A stretch of DNA of 42,445 bases from a virus (Duplodnaviria > Heunggongvirae > Uroviricota > Caudoviricetes). Each line of letters opens with the position of its first letter. Within the stretch, counting starts at the first letter, position 1. The notes below the pieces were generated by a model. The model had not been told where the DNA came from, searched no databases, and saw only the letters and a list, made by a program, of their open reading frames with translations. A program made the position numbers and the translations under genes. The stretch is taken from the IMG/VR virus record IMGVR_UViG_2693429518_000021; one strand, given 5' to 3'. Positions 8,354-42,445 of this stretch are shown piece after piece.

Positions 8354-8399
8354 GTGTTTACCTTGGTTTTTATTCTATTAACTGATTAAAAGATTAATT

Positions 8400-9029: not shown

Positions 9030-9047
9030 TTATACGCCTAATCAGCA

Positions 9048-9066
9048 GCCCGGTATTTAACCGGGC
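9048..9066. terminator. Hairpin GCCCGGT-ATTTA-ACCGGGC between convergent genes
   Basis: Perfect 7-bp stem read from sequence; no clear U-tract on either strand, so terminator function is tentative. Confidence 0.3.
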
Positions 9067-9081
9067 GTCTATGAAGTAGGG

Positions 9082-9630
9082 TTAAATCAGTGCTTCAGCA
9101 TCAGCACCTTCGCTGATATCGTCGAAATCGTCAGCGCTTGCCACTCCGCCGCCAGCGAATGCATCGCCGTCTCGCAGGAACTGGACTCCGCCTAGTGAGG
9201 CATTAATGCGTTTACCGAAATTATTGTCCTGTGCCCAGATATCGATAACGGCGTTTACATAGCACCCTGCATAGGGACGTCCATCAGCCTGAATAAGTGG
9301 CGAACGATCGCGATCAAGAACAGCTGGGCGCGCTTTGTTAGCAGCATTCAGGAAGAAATTGCCGGGGAAGCCTTCATACTCTGCTTTTTCATCACCATCA
9401 TGCAGGCACAGATTGAGTTTTTTCTCCAGTTGGTTATAAATGGGCTCCCACTTCTCTCCCCATTTTTCCTTCGCTACCTGCTTCATAGCTTTACGGATTT
9501 CTTCCAGTTGTGGGTGTTTGGGTGACATTAAAAATACTGCGGAGAAACGTGGATCGCCTTCGCCGTTTACAGTTTTAGCTTCAAACAGAGACGGGAAGGC
9601 CAGACGAACATTGTTCAGCTTCAGTTTCAT
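9082..9630 (-). CDS. DUF2815-family phage protein, ssDNA-binding-like
   Basis: 182 aa; N-terminal MKLKLNNVRLAFPSLFE and acidic C-terminal tail (DDFDDISEGADAEALI) typical of SSB-like proteins. Confidence 0.5.
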   Translation of the reverse strand: MKLKLNNVRLAFPSLFEAKTVNGEGDPRFSAVFLMSPKHPQLEEIRKAMKQVAKEKWGEKWEPIYNQLEKKLNLCLHDGDEKAEYEGFPGNFFLNAANKARPAVLDRDRSPLIQADGRPYAGCYVNAVIDIWAQDNNFGKRINASLGGVQFLRDGDAFAGGGVASADDFDDISEGADAEALI

Positions 9631-16660: not shown

Positions 16661-17083
16661 ATGCGTAATATTCAACAGGTTTTAGAGCGCTGGGGTGGCT
16701 GGGCAGCGAGTGAAGGTGGTAGCGTCTACTTTCCTCCTGTTGCAGCCGGGTTTAAGAATCTGCTACCCGCGACGCAGTCTGGAAGGCTGAAATGCAGTGA
16801 CAATGACGGTCTTATCATCAACTCCGCTATGAGCTGCCTGAAGAAAAAAGATCCGTATCTGTGCACGCTCCTTGAGTGGCATTACGTCCAGGCCATGCCC
16901 GTGCGGGCGATGGGTGAGAAGCTCGGCGTATCTCACACCCACGTTCTGAAGAGGCTTCAGGCGGCAGAGGGATTTATTGACGGTTGCTTAGCCATGCTGG
17001 ATGTGGTGCTCGAAATGGATCAGTCGGTTCAGTCAAAGCCTCAGGCTATCAGGACTTTGCGTAGGAGCTGCTCGGCGGCATAA
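16661..17083 (+). CDS. Q: Late-gene antiterminator Q-like protein
   Basis: 140 aa; N-terminus MRNIQQVLERWGGWAA and the CSDNDGLII / GEKLGVSHTHVLKRLQAAEGFIDGCLAMLDVVLEMD regions resemble the short Q antiterminator family of lambdoid phages (from memory); sits upstream of the lysis cassette. Confidence 0.65.
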   Translation: MRNIQQVLERWGGWAASEGGSVYFPPVAAGFKNLLPATQSGRLKCSDNDGLIINSAMSCLKKKDPYLCTLLEWHYVQAMPVRAMGEKLGVSHTHVLKRLQAAEGFIDGCLAMLDVVLEMDQSVQSKPQAIRTLRRSCSAA

Positions 17084-21490: not shown

Positions 21491-22956
21491 TGGCACGAAA
21501 CAAACAAGCCCTGCGGCGAACTGCGCAGGCCACAGCTGATGGTTATGAGAATTTTATTGCCCGCGTAGGGATGCAGACACCTAACCAGCACTCAGCATCC
21601 ACCTACCGGGCTAATTTCACCAGTCGTAACCGCATGCTGGTGGAATGGTCCTATCGTTCATCCTGGATCATCGGCGAAGCAGTCGATGCTATCCCGGATG
21701 ATATGACCCGCAAAGGCATTCGCATCACGTCGGAAATTGATGCAAAAGATCGTGGCATTCTCGAATCACAACTGGATGAGTTGCAAATCTGGGATGCGCT
21801 GAATGACGTGCTGAAATGGTCGCGCCTCTACGGCGGCGCGGTGGGTTTCATCATGATTGAGGGGCAGGCACCAATGACCCCGCTGCGACCCGAAACCATC
21901 GGTAAGGGCAAGTTTAAGGGGATTCTCCCGCTCGACCGCTGGATGATCGACCCGGTACTGACCCGCCGCATTAAAGATATGGGGCCGGACCTGGGTAAAC
22001 CTGAGTTTTACGATGTGGTGACCACAGCAACGGGAATTCCTGCCTGGCGCATTCATCACAGTCGCCTGATTCGCTTTGATGGCGTCACGCTGCCATTTCA
22101 GCAGAAGATGACCGAGAACGAATGGGGAATGTCGGTTGTAGAGCGTATCTGGGATCGTCTTACCGCGTTCGACAGCGCTACTGTCGGCGCGGCGCAGCTG
22201 GTCTACAAGGCGCATCTGCGCACCTACAGCGTGGAGAAGCTACGCGAGCTTATCGCACTTGGTGGTCCTGCGTATGAAGCGTTGCTGAAGAATATCGACC
22301 TGATTCGACAGTTCCAGAGCAATGAAGGTATGACACTCATGGACTCGCGGGATAAGTTTGAAACGCATCAGTACAGCTTCAGTGGTCTGGATGACATCCT
22401 TTCGCAGTTTGCAGAACAGATTAGTGGCGCTGTTGGTATCCCACTGGTGCGGTTGTTCGGACAGTCCCCGAAAGGATTTTCTACCGGCGATGCAGACCTT
22501 GCCAACTATTACGACCGGGTAAGCTCGTTACAGGAGAGGCGTTTACGTCTTCCGGTGCGGCGGATACTGGACATCATGCATCGTTCGGAGCTTGGCAAGC
22601 CGCTGCCGGACGATTTCACGTTTGAGTTTAACCCGCTCTGGCAAATGTCTGATGTCGATCGCTCAACGGTGGCGTTAAACACTACCAACGCAATCAGTAC
22701 GGCGCTGGGTGATGGTCTGATGACACTGAAAGCCGCTATGACTGATTTGCGCGAAAATTCTGACGTAACCGGCATCGGGGCATCCATTACCGACGAGGAC
22801 ATCGAGAATGCCGAAGATGAAGCGCCGCCCGGCATCGGCGAATCTGATGACGAACCGCAGGAACCGTCAGGCGGAAATCCGCTATCGAACCAGCCTACGC
22901 AGGATAGCGCGGGCGGTCGGAGACATCGTAAATGGTCGCTACGATGGTTCAAATGA
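21490..22956 (+). CDS. Portal protein
   Basis: 488-aa ORF following the large terminase with a 1-nt overlap (TGATG); acidic C-terminal region. Confidence 0.7.
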   Translation: MARNKQALRRTAQATADGYENFIARVGMQTPNQHSASTYRANFTSRNRMLVEWSYRSSWIIGEAVDAIPDDMTRKGIRITSEIDAKDRGILESQLDELQIWDALNDVLKWSRLYGGAVGFIMIEGQAPMTPLRPETIGKGKFKGILPLDRWMIDPVLTRRIKDMGPDLGKPEFYDVVTTATGIPAWRIHHSRLIRFDGVTLPFQQKMTENEWGMSVVERIWDRLTAFDSATVGAAQLVYKAHLRTYSVEKLRELIALGGPAYEALLKNIDLIRQFQSNEGMTLMDSRDKFETHQYSFSGLDDILSQFAEQISGAVGIPLVRLFGQSPKGFSTGDADLANYYDRVSSLQERRLRLPVRRILDIMHRSELGKPLPDDFTFEFNPLWQMSDVDRSTVALNTTNAISTALGDGLMTLKAAMTDLRENSDVTGIGASITDEDIENAEDEAPPGIGESDDEPQEPSGGNPLSNQPTQDSAGGRRHRKWSLRWFK

Positions 22957-23581
22957 CAGTATCACGGAAATTATTGAGGCGCTGGAACGCTACAGTGAAA
23001 TCATCACCCCCTGGGCGACAAAGGTCGCGGAAAACTTTACTGCGGACCTAACCCGGCAGAACGAGAAAGTTTGGCGGCAACACAGCAAGAACATCAGTCG
23101 CGAGCTCCGCAATCTTGTGGAAAGCGCTCCTGTGGGCCAGGTGATGCAATCCATCATCGCCGAACAGGTCAAGTACATCAAATCGCTCCCCCTCGAGGCG
23201 GCTGACAGGGTGTACGACATCCAGAATCGGGCGACAGAAGCTGTTGTGACCGGTGGGAGAGCAGAATATTTTGCTAAAGAAATAGCCGCATCGGGTGATA
23301 TAGCAAAGTCCAGAGCTGACCTGATTGCCCGTACTGAACTTGGACGTGCAACCGGCGCGCTGGATCAGGCGCGTGCGCTGTCAATTGGTTCGAATGGTTA
23401 TATCTGGCGTACAGCCGAAGATGGTGACGTCAGGCATTCTCATCGGGAAATGGAAGGTAAATTTGTCGAATGGGGCAAACCTCCAACGCTTGACGGCATG
23501 ACAGGTCACGCTGGCGAGCTCCCGAATTGTCGCTGTTATAAAGAAATCGTTTTTCCCACCTCCCAATCTTATCCCGCCTGA
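22808..23581 (+). CDS. Head morphogenesis protein (Mu F / SPP1 gp7-like)
   Basis: 257-aa ORF with GAGGA Shine-Dalgarno 8 nt upstream of ATG 22808; overlaps the portal 3' end by 149 nt in another frame; assignment by position after portal. Confidence 0.5.
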   Translation: MPKMKRRPASANLMTNRRNRQAEIRYRTSLRRIARAVGDIVNGRYDGSNDSITEIIEALERYSEIITPWATKVAENFTADLTRQNEKVWRQHSKNISRELRNLVESAPVGQVMQSIIAEQVKYIKSLPLEAADRVYDIQNRATEAVVTGGRAEYFAKEIAASGDIAKSRADLIARTELGRATGALDQARALSIGSNGYIWRTAEDGDVRHSHREMEGKFVEWGKPPTLDGMTGHAGELPNCRCYKEIVFPTSQSYPA

Positions 23582-29685: not shown

Positions 29686-30126
29686 ATGTCTACCTATTCT
29701 TTTATGGATGTCACTGCGACGCTGACCGGGCCGACAGGTTCGATTGACCTCGGGTACGGTTCGGCAAGTTCTGAAGAGGGGATTGTGGTTGCGATGGGCG
29801 GTCCTAAAAACACCATGACCATCGGTGCTGATGGCGAAGTGATGCACAGTCTCCATGCAGATAAAAGCGGGACGATTACCGTTAACCTTCTGAAGACATC
29901 ACCGACAAATAAAAAATTGTCGCTGGCGTATAACGCACAGAGCCAGTCTTCTGCCACATGGGGGAATAACGTTATCGTGATCCGCAACAAGGTCAGCGGC
30001 GACATCATCACGGCACGCAGTGTTGCGTTCCAGAAACAACCGGATAACGCCAACGCTAAAACCGGTAATACGATGCCGTGGGTGTTTGACTGCGGCAAGA
30101 TTGACCAGGTTCTCGGGGAGTTTTAA
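29686..30126 (+). CDS. Tail tube protein
   Basis: 146-aa ORF between sheath and chaperone. Confidence 0.55.
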   Translation: MSTYSFMDVTATLTGPTGSIDLGYGSASSEEGIVVAMGGPKNTMTIGADGEVMHSLHADKSGTITVNLLKTSPTNKKLSLAYNAQSQSSATWGNNVIVIRNKVSGDIITARSVAFQKQPDNANAKTGNTMPWVFDCGKIDQVLGEF

Positions 30127-30129
30127 TGC

Positions 30130-30582
30130 ATGGAATTCGAAATTAAAGGCGTGAAATATCGCACGGCAAAACTCAGCGTTTTTGACCAGCTGAAAGTGAC
30201 CCGCAAACTTCTGCCGGTGCTGGCAGGAATGATGTCAGATTTCGGGAGTATTCGCTCCCGTTTGCCTGCTGACGGCAAAATCGACACCGTGAAATTCGAA
30301 CAGTTAAAACCGGTGTTTGAAACCATGCTCCCGCGTATCGCTGAGGAACTGTCTTCCCTGACCGAAGATGACACCGATGCGATTATTCATCCCTGTCTTG
30401 CGGTGGTATCGCGGCGTCATATGGACGGATGGGTGCCGGTATTTACCCAGGGCGAACTGATGTTTGATGATATTGACTTGCTGGTCATGCTGCAGCTGGT
30501 GGCGCGGGTGGTCGCCGATTCGCTGGGAAATTTTTTGCCTACACCCCTTACCAGCACGACGCAGAGCCTGCAACAAGGCTGA
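30130..30582 (+). CDS. Tail assembly chaperone (short form)
   Basis: 150-aa ORF immediately upstream of the tape-measure gene, with a slippery site near its 3' end. Confidence 0.6.
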   Translation: MEFEIKGVKYRTAKLSVFDQLKVTRKLLPVLAGMMSDFGSIRSRLPADGKIDTVKFEQLKPVFETMLPRIAEELSSLTEDDTDAIIHPCLAVVSRRHMDGWVPVFTQGELMFDDIDLLVMLQLVARVVADSLGNFLPTPLTSTTQSLQQG

Positions 30583-30770
30583 CGTTTAACAGCCTGCCGG
30601 ACGGGCTGTCCTACCTTCTCAATCCGGTTGACGCCGGGTTAATTCCTTATACAGCACTTAAAGATGGCTCTGTCGATTTGTATGACATTGCTCTCTTGAA
30701 TGACCATCTGGCGGTAAAAGCGGATAACCAGCGACGCATTGAGAAATGGAGAGAGGATAATGAACGCTGA
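30528..30770 (+). other. Programmed -1 frameshift site (A_AAT_TTT_TTG, 30528..30537) and -1-frame extension of the chaperone to stop at 30768..30770
   Basis: Zero-frame codons GGA AAT TTT TTG give overlapping heptamers A_AAT_TTT and T_TTT_TTG; the -1 frame is open from 30537 to the TGA at 30768 (AYTPYQHDAEPATRLTFNSLPDGLSYLLNPVDAGLIPYTALKDGSVDLYDIALLNDHLAVKADNQRRIEKWREDNER), overlapping the tape-measure start. Confidence 0.5.
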
Positions 30771-32748
30771 AACTATTAAAGATTTCCTCGTCTCGCTTGG
30801 CTTCAGTGTGGATGATGCAGGAGCGAAAAAGTTCGGTTCTGTCCTCGCCGGTACAACTGCAAATGTCATCAAAATGGGGCTGGCTGTTGAAGGAGCTGCG
30901 TTGTCCGTGGTGGCCTTCACGGCTAAGATCGCCTCCGGCCTGGATAATCTTTACTGGGCGTCACAGCGCACCGGCGCGACAGTCCAGGGAATTCAGTCTA
31001 TTGGCTATGCGGTTTCGCAGGTTGGCGGCAGCGTGGACGCTGCGCGATCTTCTCTGGAAAGCCTATCCCGGTTTATTCGTAACAATCCCGGTGCAGAAGG
31101 CTTTCTGAATCGCCTGGGCGTACAGACCCGTGATGCCAGCGGTAACATGCGTGACATGGCCGCTATTTTTACGGGCGTTGGACAGAAACTCAGCAGCATG
31201 CCGTATTACCGGGCTAACCAGTATGCGCAGATGCTGGGCATTGACGAAAATACCCTTATGGCGATGCGCCGGGGTGTGGGTGGCTTCTCCGGGCAGTACA
31301 GCGCAATGGCGAAAGCTATCGGCTTCAATGCTGACGAGGCGGCCAGAAGCTCCAACAAATTTATGACCTCCCTGCGTGAGTTTGGCGCGATGGCAGGCAT
31401 GGCCCGTGACAAAATCGGCTCTAATCTTGCGGGGGGGCTTGCGGGTTCGCTGGACACCCTGCGCCGCCATATCCTGGACAACTTCCCTCGTATCGAGCAG
31501 ACCCTGACGAAAGCCATAAAAGGCATTCTGGCGCTCGGGGATATTATCGGGCGGCTGTTCTTCAGACTGATTGAGGGGACATCAGGCCTTATCACCTGGT
31601 GGCAATCGCTGGATAAGCAAACGCGGGAGTTGATCTCGCTGTTTGGCGCACTGACGATTGCGCTGCGCATTCTGAACAGTACGTTCTGGATGTCGCCGAT
31701 TGGCCTCATTACCGCGCTGGCGGCGGGTATTGCCCTCCTGTGGGAGGACTATCAGACCTGGAAGGAAGGCGGCGACAGCCTGATTGACTGGGGCAAGTGG
31801 AAACCGGAGGTCGATGCCGCGCTGAAGATGGTTCGTGACCTTAAAACGACCGTTAACGACCTGGTGAAAGCGCTGGCGAAACTGCTCAATATTGACCCCA
31901 AATCATGGTCCCTGAAGTGGGATTTCAGCAACTTCATCGACCAGATGGGCGAATTCAGCAAAATGCTGAACATGATCGCCGACCTGCTCAACGCTATCAA
32001 AGATGGCCGCTGGGCTGATGCCGTCAGCATCGGCAAACAGATACTTAATCAGGGCAGCGAAAATCCGTCAGCGATGCCGATGGTTACAGACAGCGCTAAC
32101 AGTACTGCCGACTGGATTAAAGAGCACTGGGGATTCGATCCCCGCAGTGTGGGCCGGACGGTACGCGGCTGGTTTGGTGATGATGAGCCGGAACAACATG
32201 CACAGGCTACGAAACGAGGAGAACGGAATAACAATCCGGGAAACCTTAATTTTGCTGGTCAGGCAGGGGCTTCTCTTGAACGCCCGGGCGGGCGATTTGC
32301 CAGATTTGAAACTGCTTTTGATGGATTACGGGCTCTTGCTCGTCAGTTAATGCTGTACGCCGGACGGGGAATAAACAGTGTGGAGAAAATTATCTCTACC
32401 TGGGCACCTGCGTCTGATAATAACAACACAACTGCGTATATCAGGGCTGTATCGCAACGACTGGGAGTGGATCCCCGGGCTGCCCTGAATATGAGCGATC
32501 CGCAAACCATGTCAGCATTGATGAGCAGCATTATCCAGCATGAGAATGGAAGAAATATCTATTCTCGGGAGCTGATTAATAAGGCTGCCGTGGCGGGAAT
32601 TAGTGGCAAAGTGACAGAGGTTAACCAGCAAAATACCTACCACATTTACGGTGGTGGAGATCCGCACGCTGTCGGTAATGAGGTTGCACGTCGGCAACAG
32701 TCTGCAAATGCTCAGGTCATGCGAAGTAATCAGGTGAGGGTGGGTTAG
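30760..32748 (+). CDS. Tail tape measure protein
   Basis: Largest tail-module ORF, after the frameshifting chaperone; ATG 30760 preceded by GGAGAGAGG; long Ala/Leu/Gly-rich helical regions. Confidence 0.7.
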   Translation: MNAETIKDFLVSLGFSVDDAGAKKFGSVLAGTTANVIKMGLAVEGAALSVVAFTAKIASGLDNLYWASQRTGATVQGIQSIGYAVSQVGGSVDAARSSLESLSRFIRNNPGAEGFLNRLGVQTRDASGNMRDMAAIFTGVGQKLSSMPYYRANQYAQMLGIDENTLMAMRRGVGGFSGQYSAMAKAIGFNADEAARSSNKFMTSLREFGAMAGMARDKIGSNLAGGLAGSLDTLRRHILDNFPRIEQTLTKAIKGILALGDIIGRLFFRLIEGTSGLITWWQSLDKQTRELISLFGALTIALRILNSTFWMSPIGLITALAAGIALLWEDYQTWKEGGDSLIDWGKWKPEVDAALKMVRDLKTTVNDLVKALAKLLNIDPKSWSLKWDFSNFIDQMGEFSKMLNMIADLLNAIKDGRWADAVSIGKQILNQGSENPSAMPMVTDSANSTADWIKEHWGFDPRSVGRTVRGWFGDDEPEQHAQATKRGERNNNPGNLNFAGQAGASLERPGGRFARFETAFDGLRALARQLMLYAGRGINSVEKIISTWAPASDNNNTTAYIRAVSQRLGVDPRAALNMSDPQTMSALMSSIIQHENGRNIYSRELINKAAVAGISGKVTEVNQQNTYHIYGGGDPHAVGNEVARRQQSANAQVMRSNQVRVG

Positions 32749-33335
32749 TGGATATTCTCTCTACACTTTTTCATCAGCAGAGCAGAAAAATAGGAATGAT
32801 TGTTCCCTGTGTTGTTATTTCAGAGAAGCATACAGATATGCTTGAAATAACAGAGCATCCGGTAGAGGTCGGGGCCGCTGTCGCTGATCATGCCTATAAA
32901 AAACCGTCAGAAGTGGTGATGGAGGTTGGTTTCGCCGGTGGTGGCGCATTGCTGGATTTTGCCAGTAACCTGACGGCTACCAGCCTGCTCGGCCTGAGTC
33001 CTCAGCAGACGTATCAGGAGCTACTGGATCTGCAGGAAAGCCGTATCCCCTTCGATGTGGTAACCGGTAAACGACTGTACAGCAACATGTTGATCCGGGC
33101 GCTGGAAGTGACGACGGACAAGACAACCGAAAACGTCCTGTCCGCCGTCCTCACCCTGAGGGAGGTCCTTATCTCCCGGACACAGCAGATTTCCGTCGCG
33201 GATAAAACCAACATGAAGGAAGGGGCCAGCACCTCGGCGGTACAGAACAGCGGCAACAAAACCACCAAGCCTCCAGATACTTCACTGCTGAAAAGCATCA
33301 CGGGTAACGTGGCGTCATTACTGGGGGGCGGCTAA
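32748..33335 (+). CDS. Hypothetical tail/baseplate protein
   Basis: 195-aa ORF, start overlapping the tape-measure stop. Confidence 0.4.
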   Translation: MDILSTLFHQQSRKIGMIVPCVVISEKHTDMLEITEHPVEVGAAVADHAYKKPSEVVMEVGFAGGGALLDFASNLTATSLLGLSPQQTYQELLDLQESRIPFDVVTGKRLYSNMLIRALEVTTDKTTENVLSAVLTLREVLISRTQQISVADKTNMKEGASTSAVQNSGNKTTKPPDTSLLKSITGNVASLLGGG

Positions 33336-33637
33336 TGGCAATTCAGGAAATTCCGCTGACAGCGGACAACCAGCAGTTCAGCATCGTCCTGGGTGGTGTT
33401 ACCTGGCGGATTAGCATCATATGGCGCGATCTGTACTGGATTATGGACCTGCAGAACGACAGAGGGGAGCCGGTAATCTCCGGTATTCCTCTCGTCACTG
33501 GTGCTGACCTGCTGGCGCAGTACGCCTGTATGGGGCTTGGTTTTAAGCTGGTGGTGGTCTGTGATGACAACACACAGGATTACCCCACAAAAACTGACCT
33601 GGGCGGTCGCAGCCATTTACTGGTATCAACGGAGTAA
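33335..33637 (+). CDS. Hypothetical tail/baseplate protein
   Basis: 100-aa ORF in the tail gene series. Confidence 0.35.
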   Translation: MAIQEIPLTADNQQFSIVLGGVTWRISIIWRDLYWIMDLQNDRGEPVISGIPLVTGADLLAQYACMGLGFKLVVVCDDNTQDYPTKTDLGGRSHLLVSTE

Positions 33638-33639
33638 GC

Positions 33640-34704
33640 ATGTCACAGAACTGGATGAGACATTTCGAGCTGCAGCTTGTGGACGGGAACGGTCAGGGAA
33701 TTGAGCTAAGTGATTTTAAAGTGACCTTTACGATCGACTGGTTCAACATCAGCAGCGCGTCCCGGGTAGGGACTATCAAAATTTATAACCTCTCGGCAGA
33801 TACTGTGAACCGAATCACCGGGCGGGAGTTTTCGAAAGTGCGTCTGATTGCGGGTTACGACGGTATCGCGCCGGAGGTGTCGGCAAGCGACGTCGGGATC
33901 GTGCGGGAGGTTGATGCGGCGGACGTGGGCCAGAGTGATGGCCGCAACTACGGACTGATTTTCAGCGGTGAAATTCGCTACTCGGTTACAGGAAAAGACA
34001 GTCCGGTTGATTCCTACGTCCTGATTCAGGCAGCAGATACTGATCTGGCTTTTGCCACCAGTATAACCTCACAGACGCTGGCTGCCGGTTACACGGTCGC
34101 TGATGTGAACCGTGCGCTGATGAAAGACTTCGAAGCCAAAGGTGCGACCGAAGGCCTGACGCCTGAAATGCCTGCTACTGTATTCCCCCGGGGGCGGGTG
34201 CTCTTTGGCATGACGCGGCATCTAATGGATAACGTAGCCGGGCAATGTGGCGCAACATGGCAATTCGTAGACGGTCAGCGCCAGATGGTGGCGAATAATG
34301 AATATGTTCACGAAGCGATTGTGCTCAACAGCGCTACCGGGCTTATTGGCATGCCGCAGCAGACCATCGGCAACGGCGTAAACGTTCGCGCGCTTATTAA
34401 TCCGAACATCCGGGTTAATGGGCTCATTCAACTGGATCAGGCTTCCGTATATCGCACCGCGTTGTCGAACAACGATATCGCTATGGCTGGTGGGCAGATC
34501 ACCGACCAGAACACGGACGGAAATATTACGCTAAGCGGCACCACATCGCAGCCTGCCAGCATCGCAACGGATGGCGTTTATATTGTGCGCGGGATTATGT
34601 ACACTGGCGATACAAGGGGCCAGGCGTGGTACATGGATATGATGTGCGAAGCGCGCGGTGCGCAGGATATGCCATCCAGCACTGCTTTTCAGAGAGGATT
34701 ATAG
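33640..34704 (+). CDS. Putative baseplate hub/tail protein
   Basis: 354-aa ORF between the tape-measure region and the baseplate V/W/J genes. Confidence 0.45.
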   Translation: MSQNWMRHFELQLVDGNGQGIELSDFKVTFTIDWFNISSASRVGTIKIYNLSADTVNRITGREFSKVRLIAGYDGIAPEVSASDVGIVREVDAADVGQSDGRNYGLIFSGEIRYSVTGKDSPVDSYVLIQAADTDLAFATSITSQTLAAGYTVADVNRALMKDFEAKGATEGLTPEMPATVFPRGRVLFGMTRHLMDNVAGQCGATWQFVDGQRQMVANNEYVHEAIVLNSATGLIGMPQQTIGNGVNVRALINPNIRVNGLIQLDQASVYRTALSNNDIAMAGGQITDQNTDGNITLSGTTSQPASIATDGVYIVRGIMYTGDTRGQAWYMDMMCEARGAQDMPSSTAFQRGL

Positions 34705-34706
34705 AA

Positions 34707-35054
34707 ATGAAACGATGGATATTTTCATTGCTGGCATTAGTGTCTGTTGGTGTAAGTGCAAACACCATAACGATGCAATGCGGCAACTTTCGTATGGATG
34801 CGATCCCTGATTCATTATTTAAAATCAATGGCGAAACAGTAACGTCCCAAAAAGTAAAAATGTTGGGTAAAGACGGTACAGGCATGCAGATCAAAATGGA
34901 CCTGATGCCTGCCAAAGATGGCAACAATTATGGGTTCGAGTATATCCATCGACCTGGCACTAAAACGCGTTTCCTGAACGTCCAGTTGTTGCAGAACAGC
35001 ATGGATGCTCCGAAAATTATTGGCTCTTTCCCGTGTAAGAAAGTTGTTGGTTGA
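34707..35054 (+). CDS. Secreted (periplasmic) small protein, accessory
   Basis: 115 aa; N-terminal signal peptide MKRWIFSLLALVSVGVSA with an AxA-type cleavage site; no convincing lipobox. Confidence 0.55.
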   Translation: MKRWIFSLLALVSVGVSANTITMQCGNFRMDAIPDSLFKINGETVTSQKVKMLGKDGTGMQIKMDLMPAKDGNNYGFEYIHRPGTKTRFLNVQLLQNSMDAPKIIGSFPCKKVVG

Positions 35055-35061
35055 TTGAGAA

Positions 35062-35616
35062 ATGAGCAAGCGTTCGTCAATAGATACAACAGAAGAACAA
35101 AAGGCAATTGAGACTATAGGCGCTGATTTTATTTCGTCATATTATAAAGATAGATATGAGGAAGCAAAATCAACATATCGTCGTCTTGAGGACAAAGTTA
35201 ACTACCTTCTTGCTATTTTAGCTGTAGAAACCTCTGCTCTACTGGCTGTATTTGGGACTGTTGATTTCAAAAGTGGGCTAAAGAGTAATTGGTTTTTAAC
35301 ATTATCTATACTTTGTGCATATCTGTGCTTTGTTTGTATTGTTATGTGCTTTTTTTTCCTATGGCGTACTTGGGGACTGAAAGATATACCAAAAATGCCT
35401 ATTCATAAGCGAAAAGAAGAGCATGATTTTTTATTTTACGGTGATAAAATTAAAACGCTTAGATACCATATGTTTCAGTATGGTAAAGCTGTTGAATTGA
35501 TCGAAAGTCTTCATAAAGAAAAGGCAGTTTACGCTCGTTATCTTTTTGAAGGAATTGCGTTATCTTTCGGTTTTTTCATATTATCGGTTACTTTTCTTTT
35601 GATAAATAAGGCATAG
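35062..35616 (+). CDS. Hypothetical inner-membrane protein, accessory (AT-rich)
   Basis: 184 aa; TM segments (YLLAILAVETSALLAVFGTV; FLTLSILCAYLCFVCIVMCFFFLW; GIALSFGFFILSVTFLLI); codon usage visibly AT-rich. Confidence 0.55.
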   Translation: MSKRSSIDTTEEQKAIETIGADFISSYYKDRYEEAKSTYRRLEDKVNYLLAILAVETSALLAVFGTVDFKSGLKSNWFLTLSILCAYLCFVCIVMCFFFLWRTWGLKDIPKMPIHKRKEEHDFLFYGDKIKTLRYHMFQYGKAVELIESLHKEKAVYARYLFEGIALSFGFFILSVTFLLINKA

Positions 35617-35619
35617 TTG

Positions 35620-35790
35620 ATGACAACATCAAATAATGACAACTCACAGCAAAGCAAGCCAACGCAAGCAGAGCAATCCATGGCTGATTATGAAAGCAGT
35701 ATAATGCTTGAAGTACCTTTTGGTGGATTGGATTACATGACAGAAAGCGTTAAAGAACCTGAGTTGGACAATTTTAAACAGAAAAAATAA
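35620..35790 (+). CDS. Hypothetical small acidic protein (56 aa), accessory
   Basis: ATG 35620 to TAA 35788..35790 (MTTSNNDNSQQSKPTQAEQSMADYESSIMLEVPFGGLDYMTESVKEPELDNFKQKK); below the ORF-track size cut-off; followed by a terminator. Confidence 0.35.
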   Translation: MTTSNNDNSQQSKPTQAEQSMADYESSIMLEVPFGGLDYMTESVKEPELDNFKQKK

Positions 35791-35811
35791 ACTTAGAGTT
35801 GTTCCTGTAGA

Positions 35812-35838
35812 CCCGCCACTTGGCGGGTTTTTTGTTTT
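35812..35838 (+). terminator. Intrinsic terminator (CCCGCC-ACTT-GGCGGG plus T-run) closing the accessory cassette
   Basis: Perfect 6-bp GC stem followed by TTTTTTGTTTT. Confidence 0.55.
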
Positions 35839-35852
35839 CAGGAGTTTATCAA

Positions 35853-36605
35853 ATGGCCATATCAGACCAGACTCGTAGCGGCGACCTTGCCGAAACATTC
35901 AAATCCGAGCGGGAAACCACAAAGAACCAGATCCGCGTCGCTTTGCCTGGCATCGTTCAGTCATTCGATCCTGACGCGGTGACGGCGGTTGTGCAGCCTG
36001 CTATTCGTTCGGTTGAAACCGACAACGACGGCAACCGCGTAACCAAAAATTACCCGCTGCTGGTGGATGTGCCGGTGGTATTTCCGCGCGGCGGCGGCTG
36101 CACGTTAACTTTCCCGGTAAAAGCCGGCGATGAATGCCTGGTGATTTTTGCCGATCGCTGCATCGATTTCTGGTGGCAGAGTGGCGGGATACAGGAGACG
36201 GTCGATGACAGAATGCATGATTTATCGGATGCGTTTTGTATTGTCGGTCCCCAGTCGCAGGCAAGGAGGATTAGCGGTATTAATACCAGTGCCACACAGT
36301 TGCGTAGTGATGACGGCAGCACCTATTTTGAGCTTAATCCTGATACCAGGAAAATTAAAATTGTCGCTCCGGGTGGTCTTGATGTGGTTGCCCCTCTGGC
36401 TGATTTTTCTGAGAAAGTAACCATTCATGGCCTGTTAACCTGGATGGGGGGCATGGTGGGGTCTGTGGTTTCTGGTGTGGCTTCAAAAATCACTGGTGCT
36501 GTTGAGTTTTTGGGGAGCGTGAAGGCTAACGGCAAGCCAATCGATGATACGCACACTCATGGCGGTGTTCAGCGCGGTGGAAGCAATACCGATAGGGTAA
36601 ACTGA
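35853..36605 (+). CDS. Baseplate assembly protein V-like (spike)
   Basis: ATG 35853 (MAISDQ...) preceded by CAGGAG; C-terminal HTHGG motif resembles P2 gpV/Mu gp45-type spikes; the track start at 35820 lies inside the upstream terminator. Confidence 0.6.
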   Translation: MAISDQTRSGDLAETFKSERETTKNQIRVALPGIVQSFDPDAVTAVVQPAIRSVETDNDGNRVTKNYPLLVDVPVVFPRGGGCTLTFPVKAGDECLVIFADRCIDFWWQSGGIQETVDDRMHDLSDAFCIVGPQSQARRISGINTSATQLRSDDGSTYFELNPDTRKIKIVAPGGLDVVAPLADFSEKVTIHGLLTWMGGMVGSVVSGVASKITGAVEFLGSVKANGKPIDDTHTHGGVQRGGSNTDRVN

Positions 36606-36958
36606 TGCGATACAGACGTGAAGACGCCGATGGCGATTACACCTTTGGCAGCGGTGATGACACCTGGCTGATTAACTCACCGGAGGCCGTGGCGCAGGCG
36701 GTAAAAACGCGATTTGAATTGTGGTATGGGCAATGGTTTCTCGACACCACCGAAGGGACCCCGTGGATCCAGTCTGTGCTCGGTAAGCAGAAGCCGGAAA
36801 CCTACAACCTGGCGATCCGTAAGCGCATCCTCGAAACGCGGGGCGTTAAATCAATCCTCTCTTTCAATACGACGGTGGATACCACGACCCGACGTGTCAT
36901 GTTTTCCGCTGAAATCGACACTCTCTATGGAATAACGACTGTTAAATCGGAGGCGTAA
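36605..36958 (+). CDS. Baseplate protein W-like (gp25/GPW family)
   Basis: 117-aa ORF between V-like and J-like genes; assignment by size and order. Confidence 0.5.
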   Translation: MRYRREDADGDYTFGSGDDTWLINSPEAVAQAVKTRFELWYGQWFLDTTEGTPWIQSVLGKQKPETYNLAIRKRILETRGVKSILSFNTTVDTTTRRVMFSAEIDTLYGITTVKSEA

Positions 36959-38157
36959 TGGCTCTGAACCTTGATTCTCTCGGTTTATCTGCAAAGGTAA
37001 CCGCGGAGGGGATCAGTGCGCCTGATTATCAGACGATACTCAGCACCCTGATTAGCTATTTTCAGCAGATTTATGGCAGTGATGCCTACCTCGAACCGGA
37101 TAGTAAAGACGGCCAGATGGTGGCTCTGATGGCGCTGGCGATTCATGATGCCAATAATACTGCGATAACTGTCTACAACTGTTTTTCACCGGCAACCGGC
37201 TATGGGGCCGCACTGACCAGTAACGTGAAAATAAATGGTATTTCACGTAAAGGCGCGACGAATTCTACGGTTGATTTGCTTCTTACAGGAACTGCCGGAA
37301 CAACCATCATTAATGGCAGCGTGAAAGACAGTAATAGTGTGATATGGCGTTTGCCTGCTTCAGTGGTGGTCGGCGTGGATGGTACAGTGATGGCGACCGC
37401 AACATGTTCCGTCAGTGGTGCAGTGGCGGCGCTGGCTGGAACTATCACTGAAATTAATACGCCAACCCGTGGCTGGGTTTCGGTAACTAATCCTGCTGCG
37501 GCTACTGTTGGCTCTCCGGCAGAAACTGATGCGGAGTTACGTATCCGCCAGTCGCAAAGTGTTGCGTTGCCATCAATAACCCCATTTGAAGCACTGGATG
37601 GTGCTGTTTCTAATGTTACCGGTGTAACCCGCCACAAACTCTATGAAAACGATACTGGTTCGGAGGACGGTAACGGGTTACCGCCACACTCTGTTGCTGT
37701 AATTGTGGATGGCGGTGATGTGATGGATATTGCTCAGGCTATCAGAGGGAATAAAGGCCAGGGGACAGCCACTCACGGTACAACATCCGTTACGGTTCCG
37801 GATAAATACGGCAATCCCCATGTAATCAAATTCTCGCGTTCCAGTGATGTGCCTGTTTATGCCCGGATTAAATTAAAAGTTTTTACGGGTTATACCTCAC
37901 AGATAGGGCAGCAGATCCAGCAGGCTATTTCCGACTATATCAATAGTCTGATGATTGGTGATTCGGTCCTTTTAAGTCGCATTTACTCACCGGCGAATCT
38001 TGGCGTGGTGAGTGGCGGGAATGCACGCTATTACGATATTCAGGAACTGACGATTGGGAAATCTCCGGGGGCTTTGTCGTCATCAAACATTGATATCAGA
38101 TACAACGAATCTGCGTCCTGTACCCCGGAAAATATCGTTATAACGGTGGAGTCATGA
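36958..38157 (+). CDS. Baseplate J-like protein
   Basis: 399-aa ORF in the V-W-J-I-fibre order; its last ~140 codons lie in the duplicated module. Confidence 0.6.
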   Translation: MALNLDSLGLSAKVTAEGISAPDYQTILSTLISYFQQIYGSDAYLEPDSKDGQMVALMALAIHDANNTAITVYNCFSPATGYGAALTSNVKINGISRKGATNSTVDLLLTGTAGTTIINGSVKDSNSVIWRLPASVVVGVDGTVMATATCSVSGAVAALAGTITEINTPTRGWVSVTNPAAATVGSPAETDAELRIRQSQSVALPSITPFEALDGAVSNVTGVTRHKLYENDTGSEDGNGLPPHSVAVIVDGGDVMDIAQAIRGNKGQGTATHGTTSVTVPDKYGNPHVIKFSRSSDVPVYARIKLKVFTGYTSQIGQQIQQAISDYINSLMIGDSVLLSRIYSPANLGVVSGGNARYYDIQELTIGKSPGALSSSNIDIRYNESASCTPENIVITVES

Positions 38158-38834
38158 GCAAATACACCGAACTAATCACGAACTACCACGCCACCAAACC
38201 TAAATTTCTTGCACATGTTGATCTGATGACCCGGCCGCTTATTGATGTTGCGGCGGCCACCAGAGGGCTGATTACTGCATTTGATATTGACTCTGCGGTT
38301 GGTGTGCAACTTGACATTCTGGGATTGTGGATCGGACGTAGCCGTGTTGTCAGCCAGCCTATCTCAGGTGTTTATTTCAGCTGGGATACCGACGGGCTTG
38401 GATATGATCAGGGTGTATGGCAGGGACCATACGATCCTGATTCCGGATACATGTACCTCAGCGATGAAACTTATCGTGTCATCCTTAAAGCGAAGATTGC
38501 GATTAATAACTGGGACGGACGGAATGATTCGCTTCCGGCAATTCTTGACGCGGCAACAGCAGGATCCGGGCTGCGAATGCAGATAGTCGATAACCAGGAC
38601 ATGACGATATCGGTCTGGGTCTTTCCTGATACTGATATTTCAGATGTATCGCGTGAGTTAATTGCGGCAATTAAACAGGGGTATCTCACAGTAAAAGCCG
38701 CCGGGGTATGGGCGGGGGGCATTGAAACTCCTTCGGTGGAAACCCCATCGGAAGGCTCAAAATTTTTTGGTTTTGATATGGATAACGAATTCATCAGTGG
38801 TTTTGATGTAGGAGCATGGGGAGTATTACTCTGA
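38154..38834 (+). CDS. Baseplate/tail protein I-like (copy 1)
   Basis: 226-aa ORF; translation identical to 39972..40652. Confidence 0.5.
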
Positions 38835-39643
38835 TGGCGAAAAATGACTTTAAAGCGTTTGCAACTGATCGAAATGCCAATGTTATGTCGCAGGAGGAAT
38901 GGGAAGCGTTGCCTGCGCTTTTATCCGGATTTACAGCAGGGAAAGCATCCAGTGCGCAGGTGAACAAAGCCATTCGACAGGCCAGCTTTATTGCTGCAGC
39001 TCTGGCCCAGTTTGTAAGTGACAAAACGCAACGGGATGTGCTTGATAATGGTGATCTGCCCGGTTTTGTTGAATTGCTGGGATCGGGGTTTGCTGTTGAA
39101 TACCTGAGCCGCAAGAATCCGTTTGGCGATATCAAATCGGATGGCACTGTGCAAACGGCTCTCGAAAACCTTGGTTTGGGAGAAGGTTCTGCATTACCTG
39201 TTGGTGTGCCTGTTCCGTGGCCTTCAGTCACACCGCCAACAGGCTGGCTGAAATGCAACGGTGCGGCTTTTTCTGCTGAAGAATACCCGGAACTGGCAAA
39301 GGCTTACCCGACCAATAAATTGCCTGATTTACGCGGTGAATTTATTCGTGGCTGGGATGACGGTCGCGGGATTGATACTGGTCGCGCTTTGCTTAATTGG
39401 CAGCCACACACAATTTTGGACCATGCACACTATATGGAATTATGGACAGGGGACGGACTCGCCGCAGGAAGTGCACGGGAAGGAGTAAACCCAGGAATAC
39501 TGGCTACATACGGTGACGGGGGAATAGTTAAAACGGACGAACCCGGTCTTAAAAGGCTATCAGAGGGAATAAAGGCCAGGGGACAGCCACTCACGGTACA
39601 ACATCCGTTACGGTTCCGGATAAATACGGCAATCCCCATGTAA
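38834..39643 (+). pseudogene. Tail fibre gene, copy 1: constant N-terminus plus truncated collar-domain variable cassette, fused out of frame to the duplicated J fragment
   Basis: First ~117 codons identical to fibre copy 2; from 39186 a different C-terminal cassette with tail-collar-like motifs ([23 protein letters not shown]); the frame crosses the junction at 39553/39554 and ends after ~30 unrelated codons. Confidence 0.5.
39159..39184 (+). other. hix/gix/cix-like DNA invertase crossover site, copy 1 (CTCTCGAAAACC-TT-GGTTTGGGAGAA)
   Basis: 26-bp imperfect palindrome with the AAACC-NN-GGTTT core typical of Hin/Gin/Cin sites (from memory); copy identity ends 1 bp after the site. Confidence 0.55.
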
Positions 39644-39975
39644 TCAAATTCTCGCGTTCCAGTGATGTGCCTGTTTATGCCCGGATTAAATTAAAAGTTT
39701 TTACGGGTTATACCTCACAGATAGGGCAGCAGATCCAGCAGGCTATTTCCGACTATATCAATAGTCTGATGATTGGTGATTCGGTCCTTTTAAGTCGCAT
39801 TTACTCACCGGCGAATCTTGGCGTGGTGAGTGGCGGGAATGCACGCTATTACGATATTCAGGAACTGACGATTGGGAAATCTCCGGGGGCTTTGTCGTCA
39901 TCAAACATTGATATCAGATACAACGAATCTGCGTCCTGTACCCCGGAAAATATCGTTATAACGGTGGAGTCATGA
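39554..39975 (+). pseudogene. 3' fragment of the J-like baseplate gene (duplicate, no start)
   Basis: Translation of 39667..39975 is identical to the last 102 residues of the J-like protein; the fragment begins at the duplication junction. Confidence 0.6.
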
Positions 39976-40652
39976 GCAAATACACCGAACTAATCACGAA
40001 CTACCACGCCACCAAACCTAAATTTCTTGCACATGTTGATCTGATGACCCGGCCGCTTATTGATGTTGCGGCGGCCACCAGAGGGCTGATTACTGCATTT
40101 GATATTGACTCTGCGGTTGGTGTGCAACTTGACATTCTGGGATTGTGGATCGGACGTAGCCGTGTTGTCAGCCAGCCTATCTCAGGTGTTTATTTCAGCT
40201 GGGATACCGACGGGCTTGGATATGATCAGGGTGTATGGCAGGGACCATACGATCCTGATTCCGGATACATGTACCTCAGCGATGAAACTTATCGTGTCAT
40301 CCTTAAAGCGAAGATTGCGATTAATAACTGGGACGGACGGAATGATTCGCTTCCGGCAATTCTTGACGCGGCAACAGCAGGATCCGGGCTGCGAATGCAG
40401 ATAGTCGATAACCAGGACATGACGATATCGGTCTGGGTCTTTCCTGATACTGATATTTCAGATGTATCGCGTGAGTTAATTGCGGCAATTAAACAGGGGT
40501 ATCTCACAGTAAAAGCCGCCGGGGTATGGGCGGGGGGCATTGAAACTCCTTCGGTGGAAACCCCATCGGAAGGCTCAAAATTTTTTGGTTTTGATATGGA
40601 TAACGAATTCATCAGTGGTTTTGATGTAGGAGCATGGGGAGTATTACTCTGA
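39972..40652 (+). CDS. Baseplate/tail protein I-like (copy 2)
   Basis: Identical to 38154..38834. Confidence 0.5.
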
Positions 40653-41350
40653 TGGCGAAAAATGACTTTAAAGCGTTTGCAACTGATCGAAATGCCAATG
40701 TTATGTCGCAGGAGGAATGGGAAGCGTTGCCTGCGCTTTTATCCGGATTTACAGCAGGGAAAGCATCCAGTGCGCAGGTGAACAAAGCCATTCGACAGGC
40801 CAGCTTTATTGCTGCAGCTCTGGCCCAGTTTGTAAGTGACAAAACGCAACGGGATGTGCTTGATAATGGTGATCTGCCCGGTTTTGTTGAATTGCTGGGA
40901 TCGGGGTTTGCTGTTGAATACCTGAGCCGCAAGAATCCGTTTGGCGATATCAAATCGGATGGCACTGTGCAAACGGCTCTCGAAAACCTTGGTTTGGGAG
41001 AAGCGGCGAAAAGGGATGTGGGTACAGGAGAAAATCAGATACCGGATATGTCAGCCTGGAAAAGAAATCCGAGTTCTAATCGCTGGAGAAAATTGCCTGA
41101 TGGAACCATCATTCAAATGGGAATATCAGCATCAGGGCCATTAGGCTCACCTGTAAATATCACCCTGCCGATATCTTTCAGCAATACCAATTATTGTGTT
41201 GTTGCATCGTACGATAATGCACGGTCAGGTGTGTCAACAATGGTTAGTTTTGCAGCATTACCTGTTTCACCATCGCAATTTTCCCTGATGTCATCTGTGA
41301 CTGAGCAAGGAGTAAATCCTTTTGCTTACTGGATTGCTTTTGGAGATTGA
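40652..41350 (+). CDS. Tail fibre protein (constant N-terminus plus variable cassette in current orientation)
   Basis: ATG 40652 overlaps the I-like stop (TGATG); sequence diverges from copy 1 after the gix-like site at 41003. Confidence 0.6.
40977..41002 (+). other. hix/gix/cix-like DNA invertase crossover site, copy 2; probable left boundary of the invertible segment
   Basis: Identical to the site at 39159..39184; lies at the constant/variable junction of the fibre gene. Confidence 0.55.
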
Positions 41351-41353
41351 TAA

Positions 41354-41773
41354 ATGGACAGATACTTCTATTCACAAAAAGAAAATGGTTTTTTTACCGA
41401 TTTAAATAAAGCACCTTCAGATGCTGTTGAGATAACCACGGATGAATGGCTGTCACTACTGGATGGTCAGGATAATGGCATGAAAATAGTCAGCAATCAG
41501 GAGGGATATCCGGTTTTGACAGAGCAACCACCTTTATCAAAAGAAAACCTTATTGCATTGGCAGAGTTGAAAAAAGGAAAACTTATTAATGAAGCCAACG
41601 AGCACATGAATAGCAGGCAATGGCCTGGTAAAGCCGCTATTGGTCGTCTGAAAGGTGACGAGCTGGAACAATATAATTTATGGCTGGATTATCTGGACGC
41701 ACTGGAACTGGTTGATATCTCCAGTGCTCCAGATATTGAATGGCCTACGCCTCCGGCAGTTCAGGCCAGATGA
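41354..41773 (+). CDS. tfa: Tail fibre assembly protein (Tfa/U-like)
   Basis: 139 aa; C-terminal motif DISSAPDIEWPTPP typical of Tfa chaperones; directly follows the fibre gene. Confidence 0.65.
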   Translation: MDRYFYSQKENGFFTDLNKAPSDAVEITTDEWLSLLDGQDNGMKIVSNQEGYPVLTEQPPLSKENLIALAELKKGKLINEANEHMNSRQWPGKAAIGRLKGDELEQYNLWLDYLDALELVDISSAPDIEWPTPPAVQAR

Positions 41774-42350
41774 CATCCGGCGCGGTGCTGGTATCTGTTG
41801 CAGTCACCGCGTCAATGTAATCCAGCACAGCGTTAAGCCGGGTTGTTTCTGCCTGCGTCAGCTTCCGCCCGGCCTGTAATTTCAGTTGAATCAGACTAAT
41901 GGAAGCCATTGCAGCATCAATCAGTGACTGACGCTGTGCTTCTGCCGCTTCGACTGCTGCGCTATGCTGTGCCTCAGTATCGGTCACCCATTTCTCACCA
42001 TCCCATTTATCGTATGGCGTTAATGGAGCGATAGTGGTTGTATTTTCAGGGTAATCACCCGGAGCTGTGATTTCTTTTGATTCTCCTGTTTCAGTGCTAT
42101 AGACCGTTTCACCGCGATGGTCTGGCACATATTCCCATGAGTTAAAATCTGCAGAACGGCAAATTGCATAACCAGCTTTATATGAGCCAGGAGCATCTAA
42201 ACAGGAACATGCCGGGATACCGACACCCACAGCAAGATATTCAGTTGATGTGGAAATATATTCCCGTGTCTCACCATCATAATTGTAAACGGTAATGTCT
42301 CCCGCCTTTGTGGTGATGAGTTCGCTATTTAATACAGCTTTATTCATCAT
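41745..42350 (-). CDS. tfa: Tail fibre assembly protein, alternative copy (Tfa'/U'-like), inverted orientation
   Basis: 201 aa; resembles lambda Tfa as I recall it (EYVPDHRGETVYSTETGE, DTSTAPDVIWPELP); convergent with and overlapping the plus-strand tfa by 29 nt. Confidence 0.7.
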   Translation of the reverse strand: MMNKAVLNSELITTKAGDITVYNYDGETREYISTSTEYLAVGVGIPACSCLDAPGSYKAGYAICRSADFNSWEYVPDHRGETVYSTETGESKEITAPGDYPENTTTIAPLTPYDKWDGEKWVTDTEAQHSAAVEAAEAQRQSLIDAAMASISLIQLKLQAGRKLTQAETTRLNAVLDYIDAVTATDTSTAPDVIWPELPEA

Positions 42351-42445
42351 GCGGCCCTTACGATATAATTAAAAGCGATGTTACGAGGACGAGTTTCTGT
42401 ACCTACATTTTCACTAATTTCACCATAACGTTTAACACTACGAGA
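42345..42445 (-). CDS. 3' end of an alternative tail-fibre variable cassette (partial; continues beyond the window)
   Basis: Minus-strand frame is open from the window edge (...SRSVKRYGEISENVGTETRPRNIAFNYIVRAA) to a TGA overlapping the Tfa' start (ATGA). Confidence 0.5.

Follow-up and report, generated by a model that had tools for sequence, protein, structure and literature searches.

A hotspot for accessory genes between the baseplate hub and spike genes of SEN34-like prophages, with a candidate toxin-antitoxin-like membrane effector

What are three small, AT-rich genes doing between the baseplate hub gene and the central spike gene of a contractile phage tail? The question is raised by an Escherichia coli prophage in the IMG/VR record IMGVR_UViG_2693429518_000021, the whole 42,445-nucleotide (nt) stretch of which is referred to below as the window. 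Its hub gene ends at 34704 and its spike gene starts at 35853. The intervening genes, here named o1, o2 and o3, encode proteins of 115, 184 and 56 amino acids (aa) and are followed by a strong intrinsic terminator. A preliminary description of this DNA had read them as a three-gene cassette with its own terminator, placed in a tail module of a kind that is normally uninterrupted, and had proposed that they form an envelope-acting accessory system. The three open reading frames (ORFs) and their hub-spike position are as it described. The same holds for the nature of the proteins: o1 carries a signal-peptide pattern and is secreted, o2 has three hydrophobic segments and is a membrane protein, and o3 is acidic, with an isoelectric point of 4.3.

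Comparison with related loci indicates that the hub-spike gap is an accessory-gene (moron/defence) hotspot of SEN34-like temperate myophages. The hotspot is built in three layers, namely a resident first gene (o1), an exchangeable cargo slot (here o2 and o3) and a terminator that belongs to the phage backbone. Our preferred reading, which we consider fairly probable, is that of a moron/defence hotspot whose present cargo is a candidate toxin-antitoxin-like membrane effector.

The three ORFs stand out by composition, as had been noted at the outset. Their stretch has a G+C content of 0.374, compared with 0.53-0.54 for hub and spike, and it ties for the lowest G+C at its length, with 0.2% of sliding windows over the whole window being equally low. 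The values for o1, o2 and o3 are 0.425, 0.337 and 0.368 overall, and 0.47, 0.25 and 0.35 at third codon positions (hub, 0.61), with o2 and o3 more AT-rich than o1. The genes are tightly packed: o1 starts 2 nt past the hub stop codon, and the spacers along hub-o1-o2-o3 are 2, 7 and 3 nt. Full-length PHROG families without known function match each of the three. Homologues keep all three as ORFs at 36-67% identity, and because of this conservation we regard o1, o2 and o3 as real genes.

The hub-spike gap in related phages

From GTDB species genomes and IMG/VR we drew 160 loci that carry a related spike gene; hub and spike could both be located in 152, and the hub gene is kept in these 152 related loci. 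Among them the gap spans -8 to 2820 nt and is always AT-rich (G+C 0.30-0.47 versus 0.44-0.58 in the flanks). Clustering of the ORFs in the gaps gave around 70 clusters in 59 architectures, and prophages whose hub and spike are 96-98% identical differ in gap content, o2-o3 being missing from some of them. Hub and spike abut or overlap (gap of at most 2 nt) in eight loci, including Arsenophonus, Serratia and Sodalis. In a further nine, Erwinia, Kalamiella and a Salmonella strain among them, the gap of 24-93 nt is free of cargo ORFs. The hotspot occurs across Enterobacterales. The variable gap content, together with the abutting hub and spike genes, implies that o1-o3 are dispensable for the virion. 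The preliminary description had suggested such a comparison with related prophages; the outcome, with hub and spike contiguous in some relatives, bears out its view that the genes are accessory and not structural.

A megablast search with positions 34400-36100 against 5426 complete Escherichia coli genomes found both flanks in 307 of them (~6%) and the whole query in only 21. E. coli genomes that have the flanks but another cargo carry RefSeq annotations in the gap that include DUF4282, DUF2335, YafO toxin and hypothetical proteins. The cargo of the window is uncommon, o2 being found in seven of the 152 loci and o3 in six, and o2-o3 in 21 of the 307 E. coli prophages of this type. In nearly all loci o1-o3 have the orientation of the late operon.

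Other cargos of the slot include PD-Lambda-1 (PADLOC, E 4.8e-83), YafO (E 4e-17) and Doc/Fic (E 1e-13), and such cargos often come with non-coding DNA upstream that contains promoter-like hexamers. A full PD-Lambda-1 gene (T5orf172/GIY-YIG-like) fills the slot in Erwinia, Pantoea and Dryocola prophages (L021, L025 and L043; cluster 20). The commonest cargo is an uncharacterised two-gene set (clusters 1 and 2), seen in L008, L087 and 35 other loci, which comprises a 192-263-aa helical protein and a 123-142-aa protein with a weak PADLOC HEPN_IX match (E 0.009). This HEPN-like set is a candidate toxin-antitoxin or defence pair.

The borders of the exchange were located with blastn by comparing the window with loci that have the same or another o1 allele and a different cargo. 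Homology runs through the hub and o1 and ends at 35045-35057, at the o1 stop codon; it resumes at 35808-35822, at the start of the terminator stem. On the left, the exchange is anchored by the conserved 3' end of o1, which encodes GSFPCKK; directly after it the sequences diverge. These breakpoints define an exchangeable cargo slot at 35055..35807 (+ strand), which here holds o2 and o3. The o1 allele of the window (at least 90% identity) was found with six different cargos. Hence the three-gene cassette resolves into two independent modules, of which only o2-o3 is mobile.

The right anchor of the slot is a Rho-independent terminator (35809..35838, + strand), with a stem-loop at 35809-35830 and a T-run to about 35838. 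The stem has 9 base pairs, six of them G-C, and the hairpin has the form AACCCGCC-loop-GGCGGGTTTTTT; a conserved GGAG ribosome-binding site comes after it. That a strong intrinsic terminator follows the three genes is confirmed: its fold energy is -21.3 kcal/mol (z = -3.3), none of 200 shuffled sequences folds equally well, and it is the top-ranked terminator-like site in 30000-42445. An Rfam scan of 34400-36000 returned sub-threshold leader or terminator look-alikes only, caused by the hairpin. The terminator is, however, not the cassette's own. The same hairpin, with a median distance of 22 nt from stem end to spike start codon in the related loci, recurs in 128 of the 135 cargo-bearing loci (95%), regardless of the cargo, and in six of the nine gene-free short gaps (6-120 nt range); it is found in none of the eight loci where hub abuts spike. 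Because its presence does not depend on the cargo and extends to some empty gaps, it is a backbone element of the phage rather than cargo-borne. An intrinsic terminator amid baseplate genes is thus a feature of the lineage in its own right. Cargo-free relatives in which hairpin and T-run still stand between hub and spike are L039 and L040 (72-nt gaps), L058 (47 nt) and L074, L079 and L081 (35-93 nt). Q-dependent read-through of terminators is established lambdoid biology, and the Q antiterminator that heads the late operon could carry late transcription past the terminator at 35809. This conserved terminator within the tail operon would then offer a clean example of a Q-antiterminated phage that hosts passengers while its baseplate expression is undisturbed.

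Slots for passenger genes are already known in other phages, and the locus is a further example rather than a new principle. In the account of a review (PMC3594210; Juhala et al. 2000, Cumby et al. 2012), HK97 gene 15, the founding moron, is found within a tail operon and encodes an inner-membrane exclusion protein. P2-like phages have the hotspots tin/old and Z/fun, the second flanked by tail genes (Rousset et al. 2022, as cited in bioRxiv 10.1101/2024.10.15.618418). Since both HK97 gene 15 and P2 Z/fun sit inside tail genes, the statement that tail modules are normally uninterrupted does not stand.

The resemblance to lambdoid morons such as HK97 gene 15 is close in several respects: an AT-rich insert that is absent from close relatives and encodes a small membrane protein lies among the tail genes of a Q-dependent late operon, with a terminator after it. 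In contrast to gene 15, no promoter of its own was found here, the terminator is backbone and common to all cargos, the locus is a multi-cargo hotspot and not a single insertion, and o2 is unrelated to gp15/YebO. Two of the four moron characters of Juhala and Hendrix are seen here, namely extra DNA and deviant composition; for a promoter of its own, active in the repressed prophage, sequence scans gave weak candidates only, and the terminator is not its own. With the P2 hotspots the locus shares conserved structural flanks around dozens of alternative cargos, known defence and toxin-antitoxin systems among them, and the swapping of cargo among close prophages. It differs from them in lineage (SEN34-like phages, which combine a myovirus tail with lambdoid regulation), in its hub-spike position, in its resident first gene o1 and in the fixed terminator as right border.

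In our literature searches we did not find a hub-spike hotspot of SEN34-like phages described. The hotspot overturns no current ideas and extends them to a poorly studied group of phages. Many anti-phage systems were first found in prophage hotspots, and the sharp borders of the slot, together with PD-Lambda-1, YafO, Doc and the uncharacterised cargos, make it a ready search window for new defence genes.

The cargo genes o2 and o3 and the resident gene o1

The membrane protein o2 (35062..35616, + strand; phrog_18554, E 8e-128) is assigned to the inner membrane, with three transmembrane (TM) helices. An N-in/C-out topology is predicted by the positive-inside rule over 12 family members, and the predicted cytoplasmic parts are an N-terminal helix of 36-46 aa and a basic loop of 58 aa. 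The AlphaFold2 model has a pLDDT of 80. Invariant positions comprise YRRLEDKVNYLLA in the N-terminal cytoplasmic helix, Glu56 within TM1, and P110/M112/P113. The family is tiny, with 12 clusters among 5.8e9 proteins, and all members whose context was read (from E. coli, Citrobacter, Klebsiella, Serratia and a mosaic contig) are in the hub-spike hotspot. One protein, P0010 (47% identical to o2), was first read as lying at another position, in a Mu-like tail cluster. That reading was dropped, as translation of its surroundings showed the C-terminus of a hub, an o1 homologue and the N-terminus of a spike, which places it in the same hotspot on a mosaic or degraded contig. A tblastn search of o2 against 50,697 phage records gave no match.

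Profile comparisons suggest that o2 is remotely related to the Pycsar effector PycTM and to 2TM/SLATT-type effectors. Five, four and two of the 12 family members match three PADLOC PycTM models, with 5e-5 as the best E value, and there is also a match to one CBASS '2TM effector' model. An exhaustive hidden Markov model search among 1.84 billion representatives yielded 77 proteins at E<1e-3, from which an alignment of 72 sequences, o2 included, was drawn. Of these aligned relatives 20, 13 and 10 match the three PycTM models, a few match CBASS 2TM, CARF-TM or RT-SLATT models, and one distant relative has a faint match to PF18967 (PycTM). There are also weak matches of o2 relatives to Pfam '8xMP', a name for which a literature search gave nothing relevant.

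With PycTM effectors o2 shares a similar size (~165-185 aa) and an N-terminal cytoplasmic helix followed by TM helices, and the profile similarity, although weak, is repeated. Its scores are far below the PycTM family level. Pycsar has a cyclase, whereas the partner of o2 is a 34-64-aa hydrophilic peptide, with no nucleotide-synthesising partner. Because there is no cyclase and the scores are only sub-family ones, we do not count o2 as a member of Pycsar, although it may work like PycTM. According to the summary of Tal et al. (2021) in PMC11224242, PycTM effectors disrupt membrane integrity upon activation; a further paper that mentions PycTM (NAR 2026) is about a canonical Pycsar system. By analogy with PycTM, CBASS 2TM and SLATT effectors, o2 would be expected to disrupt the membrane and so to cause abortive infection.

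The distant relatives of o2 occur in varied surroundings. One adjoins a type ISP restriction enzyme and a UvrD-like helicase, in a defence island, another adjoins Tn7-like tnsBCD, and others lie in phage accessory regions beside an Acb2/Tad1-like or SocA/Panacea gene; no cyclase was found in any of about 12 contexts. The distant relative P0137 (L174, 241-732) is located directly downstream of an Acb2/Tad1 hairpin-domain protein (PF24729), on a short contig that is probably from a phage. PF24729 is an anti-CBASS/anti-Thoeris sponge family, and here an anti-defence gene thus stands beside one for an effector-like membrane protein.

The hydrophilic protein o3 (35620..35790, + strand; phrog_18231, E 5e-43) has no signal peptide. 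Its gene starts 3 nt past the o2 stop codon, with an AAGG Shine-Dalgarno sequence inside the 3' end of o2, and accompanies o2 in six of seven loci. Members of the o2 family in the hotspot have a 52-64-aa acidic ORF next downstream. More widely, all o2 relatives whose downstream DNA was read, except P0137, have a hydrophilic ORF of 33-64 aa, which starts -4 to +22 nt relative to the stop codon of the o2 relative. P0137 is 245 aa long, with a C-terminal extension and no micro-ORF downstream. The extension was considered as an o2-o3 fusion, which was dropped since the predicted topology puts it in the periplasm. Homologues of o3 at 37-45% identity have the common motif YExxIMxxVPFGxL..TES; the distant micro-ORFs have in common only a P-x-G...TES-aromatic...Lys-rich pattern.

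These features suggest that o3 is probably a cytoplasmic partner of o2, whose N-terminal helix and basic loop are predicted to face the cytoplasm, the side where o3 would be. Neither o2 nor o3 has a toxin-antitoxin match in Pfam, NCBIfam or PADLOC. Compared with type II-like toxin-antitoxin systems, o2-o3 are likewise small, adjacent, translationally coupled genes that are conserved as a pair, and neither belongs to a known toxin or antitoxin family. A toxin-antitoxin-like or abortive-infection module best accounts for a membrane protein of an effector-like superfamily that, P0137 apart, always comes with a coupled micro-protein, the two moving as a pair among mobile elements and defence loci. 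In such a module the peptide would restrain or sense, and the membrane protein would kill or de-energise.

The resident gene o1 (34707..35054, + strand) encodes a protein with a type I signal peptide (K/R n-region, hydrophobic core and a VSA-N site), which is kept in 51 of 53 family members. The predicted fold begins at residue 21 and is an eight-stranded beta-barrel with an invariant Cys25-Cys110 pair. Of the 135 loci whose gap is filled, 110 open with an o1 homologue on the + strand, and in six loci o1 stands alone. Most phages of the lineage, and all isolated ones among them, carry the gene, which diverges fast among prophages that are otherwise 96-98% identical. No Pfam, NCBIfam or PDB sequence match was found for o1, and a structure search of BFVD returned uncharacterised proteins or lipoproteins only. 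A lipoprotein with a C-terminal o1 domain occurs in three loci; these versions indicate that the o1 barrel can be membrane-anchored. At L171 (4098-4988) and at L019, L046 and L071 (cluster 19) the 115-aa o1 is replaced by a 288-374-aa lipoprotein (lipobox ...GC), the C-terminal ~95 residues of which are the o1 domain (…DGNNYGFEF…NVQLLQNSMDASKVIGSFPCKRI).

Exported to the periplasm, o1 may be an envelope-level exclusion or protection factor. T4 Spackle and T5 Llp are periplasmic or envelope proteins of exclusion or inhibition, and o1 is small and exported like these and like PliC/MliC/PhiA and Cor. Set beside envelope exclusion proteins, o1 is encoded among tail genes and some of its homologues are lipoprotein-anchored. 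With the PliC/MliC lysozyme inhibitors in particular it would share export and an eight-stranded barrel with an N-to-C disulfide, although it gives no match to the MliC/PliC family in Pfam, NCBIfam or PDB sequences. As a weak lead, o1 might be a Spackle/PliC-like inhibitor of a muralytic domain of the tape measure. The tape measure of a Serratia relative has an SLT match; that of the window has no SLT domain at E<0.001.

Candidate mechanism and rival explanations

In the mechanism that we favour, the cargo slot is refilled by homologous recombination between related prophages, with the 3' end of o1 and the terminator as anchors. The o3 protein would bind the basic cytoplasmic face of o2 and keep it inactive. 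Upon phage infection, or on loss of o3, o2 would oligomerise and de-energise the membrane. The outcome would be a cyclase-independent, toxin-antitoxin-like abortive-infection or addiction module of benefit to the lysogen. During lytic growth, Q-modified RNA polymerase would read through the terminator at 35809; without Q, the terminator would stop hotspot-derived transcripts ahead of the baseplate genes. If this is true, o2-o3 would show that PycTM-type effectors are controllable by a micro-protein rather than by a cyclic-nucleotide signal.

A more ambitious proposal joins all parts of the locus, and we offer it tentatively, as it is possible but rather doubtful that the whole of it holds. In this proposal o2-o3 would be an undescribed cyclase-independent two-gene immune or addiction module, in which a PycTM-like three-helix membrane effector has a hydrophilic 'TES-aromatic/Lys-tail' micro-protein (34-64 aa) as keeper or sensor, spread among SEN34-like prophages, other phages, Tn7-like transposons and chromosomal defence islands; the hub-spike slot would be a rich, unexploited source of defence genes, and o1 a new periplasmic exclusion factor. 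As for the envelope-acting accessory system suggested earlier, the accessory nature of the genes stands, and so does the location at the envelope. The signal peptide of o1 and the inner-membrane position of o2 make an envelope-acting role reasonable. Receptor modification, one of the functions suggested with it, found no support, as no enzyme-like domain was found in o1-o3.

Several points weigh against a toxin-antitoxin-like effector at this locus. The similarity of o2 to PADLOC PycTM is weak (E 2.6e-4, 19 bits), and o2 itself matches neither the Pfam PycTM model (PF18967) nor a SLATT model. No cyclase or other sensor gene lies beside o2, its neighbours being o1, o3 and tail genes. PADLOC has no model for the o2-o3 pair, which is hence without experimental precedent. 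A consensus scan found no sigma-70 promoter with a match of at least 9/12 upstream of o1 or o2, and a relaxed scan of the same regions gave weak 8-9/12 matches only. With no credible promoter and such short intergenic gaps, expression in the lysogen is something that we infer, and it may be that o1-o3 are produced solely from the late tail transcript. The toxicity of o2 and its binding by o3, like an anti-phage effect, have the same standing. The role offered for o1, in turn, is drawn solely from its location, fold class and rapid divergence.

An unlikely rival is superinfection exclusion at the envelope, in which o2 and/or o1 would keep incoming phages with the same or a related tail type from injecting their genomes, without killing the cell, and o3 would be an accessory. 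HK97 gp15, P22 SieA, T4 Imm/Sp and Cor/Llp are precedents for exclusion at the level of injection or envelope. The position in the tail operon matches the HK97 gene 15 moron, which encodes an inner-membrane exclusion protein (PMC3594210). The periplasmic o1, present in most phages of the lineage and fast-diverging, is what would be expected of an arms-race or specificity factor, and lipoprotein-anchored o1 domains exist. However, distant relatives of o2 with a micro-ORF are found in a non-phage defence island and in Tn7-like cargo, which fits a general effector better than a tail-specific blocker. Moreover o2 resembles pore-forming effectors (PycTM) and not the known Sie proteins, and the tape measure of the window offers no SLT domain at the threshold given above.

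The tight packing behind the hub, with gaps of 2, 7 and 3 nt, the lack of a detectable promoter, the late-operon orientation in nearly all loci and the presence of a Q antiterminator would also suit late lytic accessory functions, with o1-o3 made from the Q-dependent late transcript only, together with the tail genes. Such functions would come into play as infection ends, examples being masking of receptor or envelope against the loss of progeny on debris, tuning of lysis, and exclusion of competitors in the latent period. We consider this explanation improbable, for other cargos of the slot (YafO, Doc, PD-Lambda-1) are typically expressed in lysogens and often have a promoter-like upstream stretch, the phage already has a complete holin/endolysin/spanin cassette, and a terminator right after the slot looks like insulation of moron transcription in lysogens. 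That o1-o3 are lineage-specific virion, baseplate or tail-assembly components, as their hub-spike position and the retention of o1 there in most relatives might suggest, is very improbable. This role is contradicted by the eight relatives in which hub and spike abut or overlap and the nine with short gaps that have no cargo ORF, by the rarity of o2-o3 among the 152 loci and the 307 E. coli prophages, and by a cleavable signal peptide in o1 and three TM helices in o2, neither of which is compatible with tail assembly in the cytoplasm. PHROG gives no structural annotation for o1-o3. On these comparisons a structural role is essentially excluded, and the moron/defence hotspot with a candidate toxin-antitoxin-like effector remains the reading that we prefer.

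The prophage around the hotspot

The prophage of the window adjoins yfhL and encodes a tyrosine integrase. Its nearest named relative is Salmonella phage SEN34 (genus Brunovirus), which combines lambdoid regulation with myovirus morphology (PMC5261728). A prophage of E. coli 2011C-4251 is 99.9% identical to positions 1-39185 of the window, and the order of the late genes was read from its RefSeq annotation: from Q on, the lysis, head and contractile-tail genes are all on the + strand and form a single late operon. The Q-family antiterminator at the head of this operon (16661..17083, + strand) matches PF06530 (Phage_antitermQ, E 5e-42). The left conserved flank of the hotspot is the 354-aa baseplate hub gene (33640..34704, + strand; phrog_196 'baseplate hub', E 7.8e-89), which also has a weak match to Pfam E217_GP41, under the model cutoff. 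The right conserved flank is the 250-aa central spike gene (35853..36605, + strand), with a PF18352 match (E 6.7e-44) and an Apex motif.

At the right end of the window, positions 39554-42445 are a 100% identical direct repeat of 37736-40627, and 1450 nt are present twice within the window (37736-39185 = 39554-41003). The piece that joins the repeat copies (39166-39552, 387 nt) has the opposite orientation in the 2011C-4251 prophage. The direct repeat and the inverted junction indicate that this end, with the baseplate J/wedge, tail fibre and Pin-invertible segment, is duplicated, rearranged or mis-assembled. The RefSeq annotation of the 2011C-4251 prophage does not apply to the window past 39185. 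In that 99.9% identical prophage, RefSeq gives the head-morphogenesis gene (window 22846-23581) and the Pin invertase (pinE region) as frameshifted pseudogenes, and by these calls it may be defective.

The second lowest-G+C island of the window lies at about 8100-9500, with a value of 0.37, the same as that of the three-ORF stretch. There a + strand ORF for a hypothetical protein (~8401-9030) is wedged among - strand replication genes (DNA polymerase, DUF2815), and the island looks like another moron-like insert.

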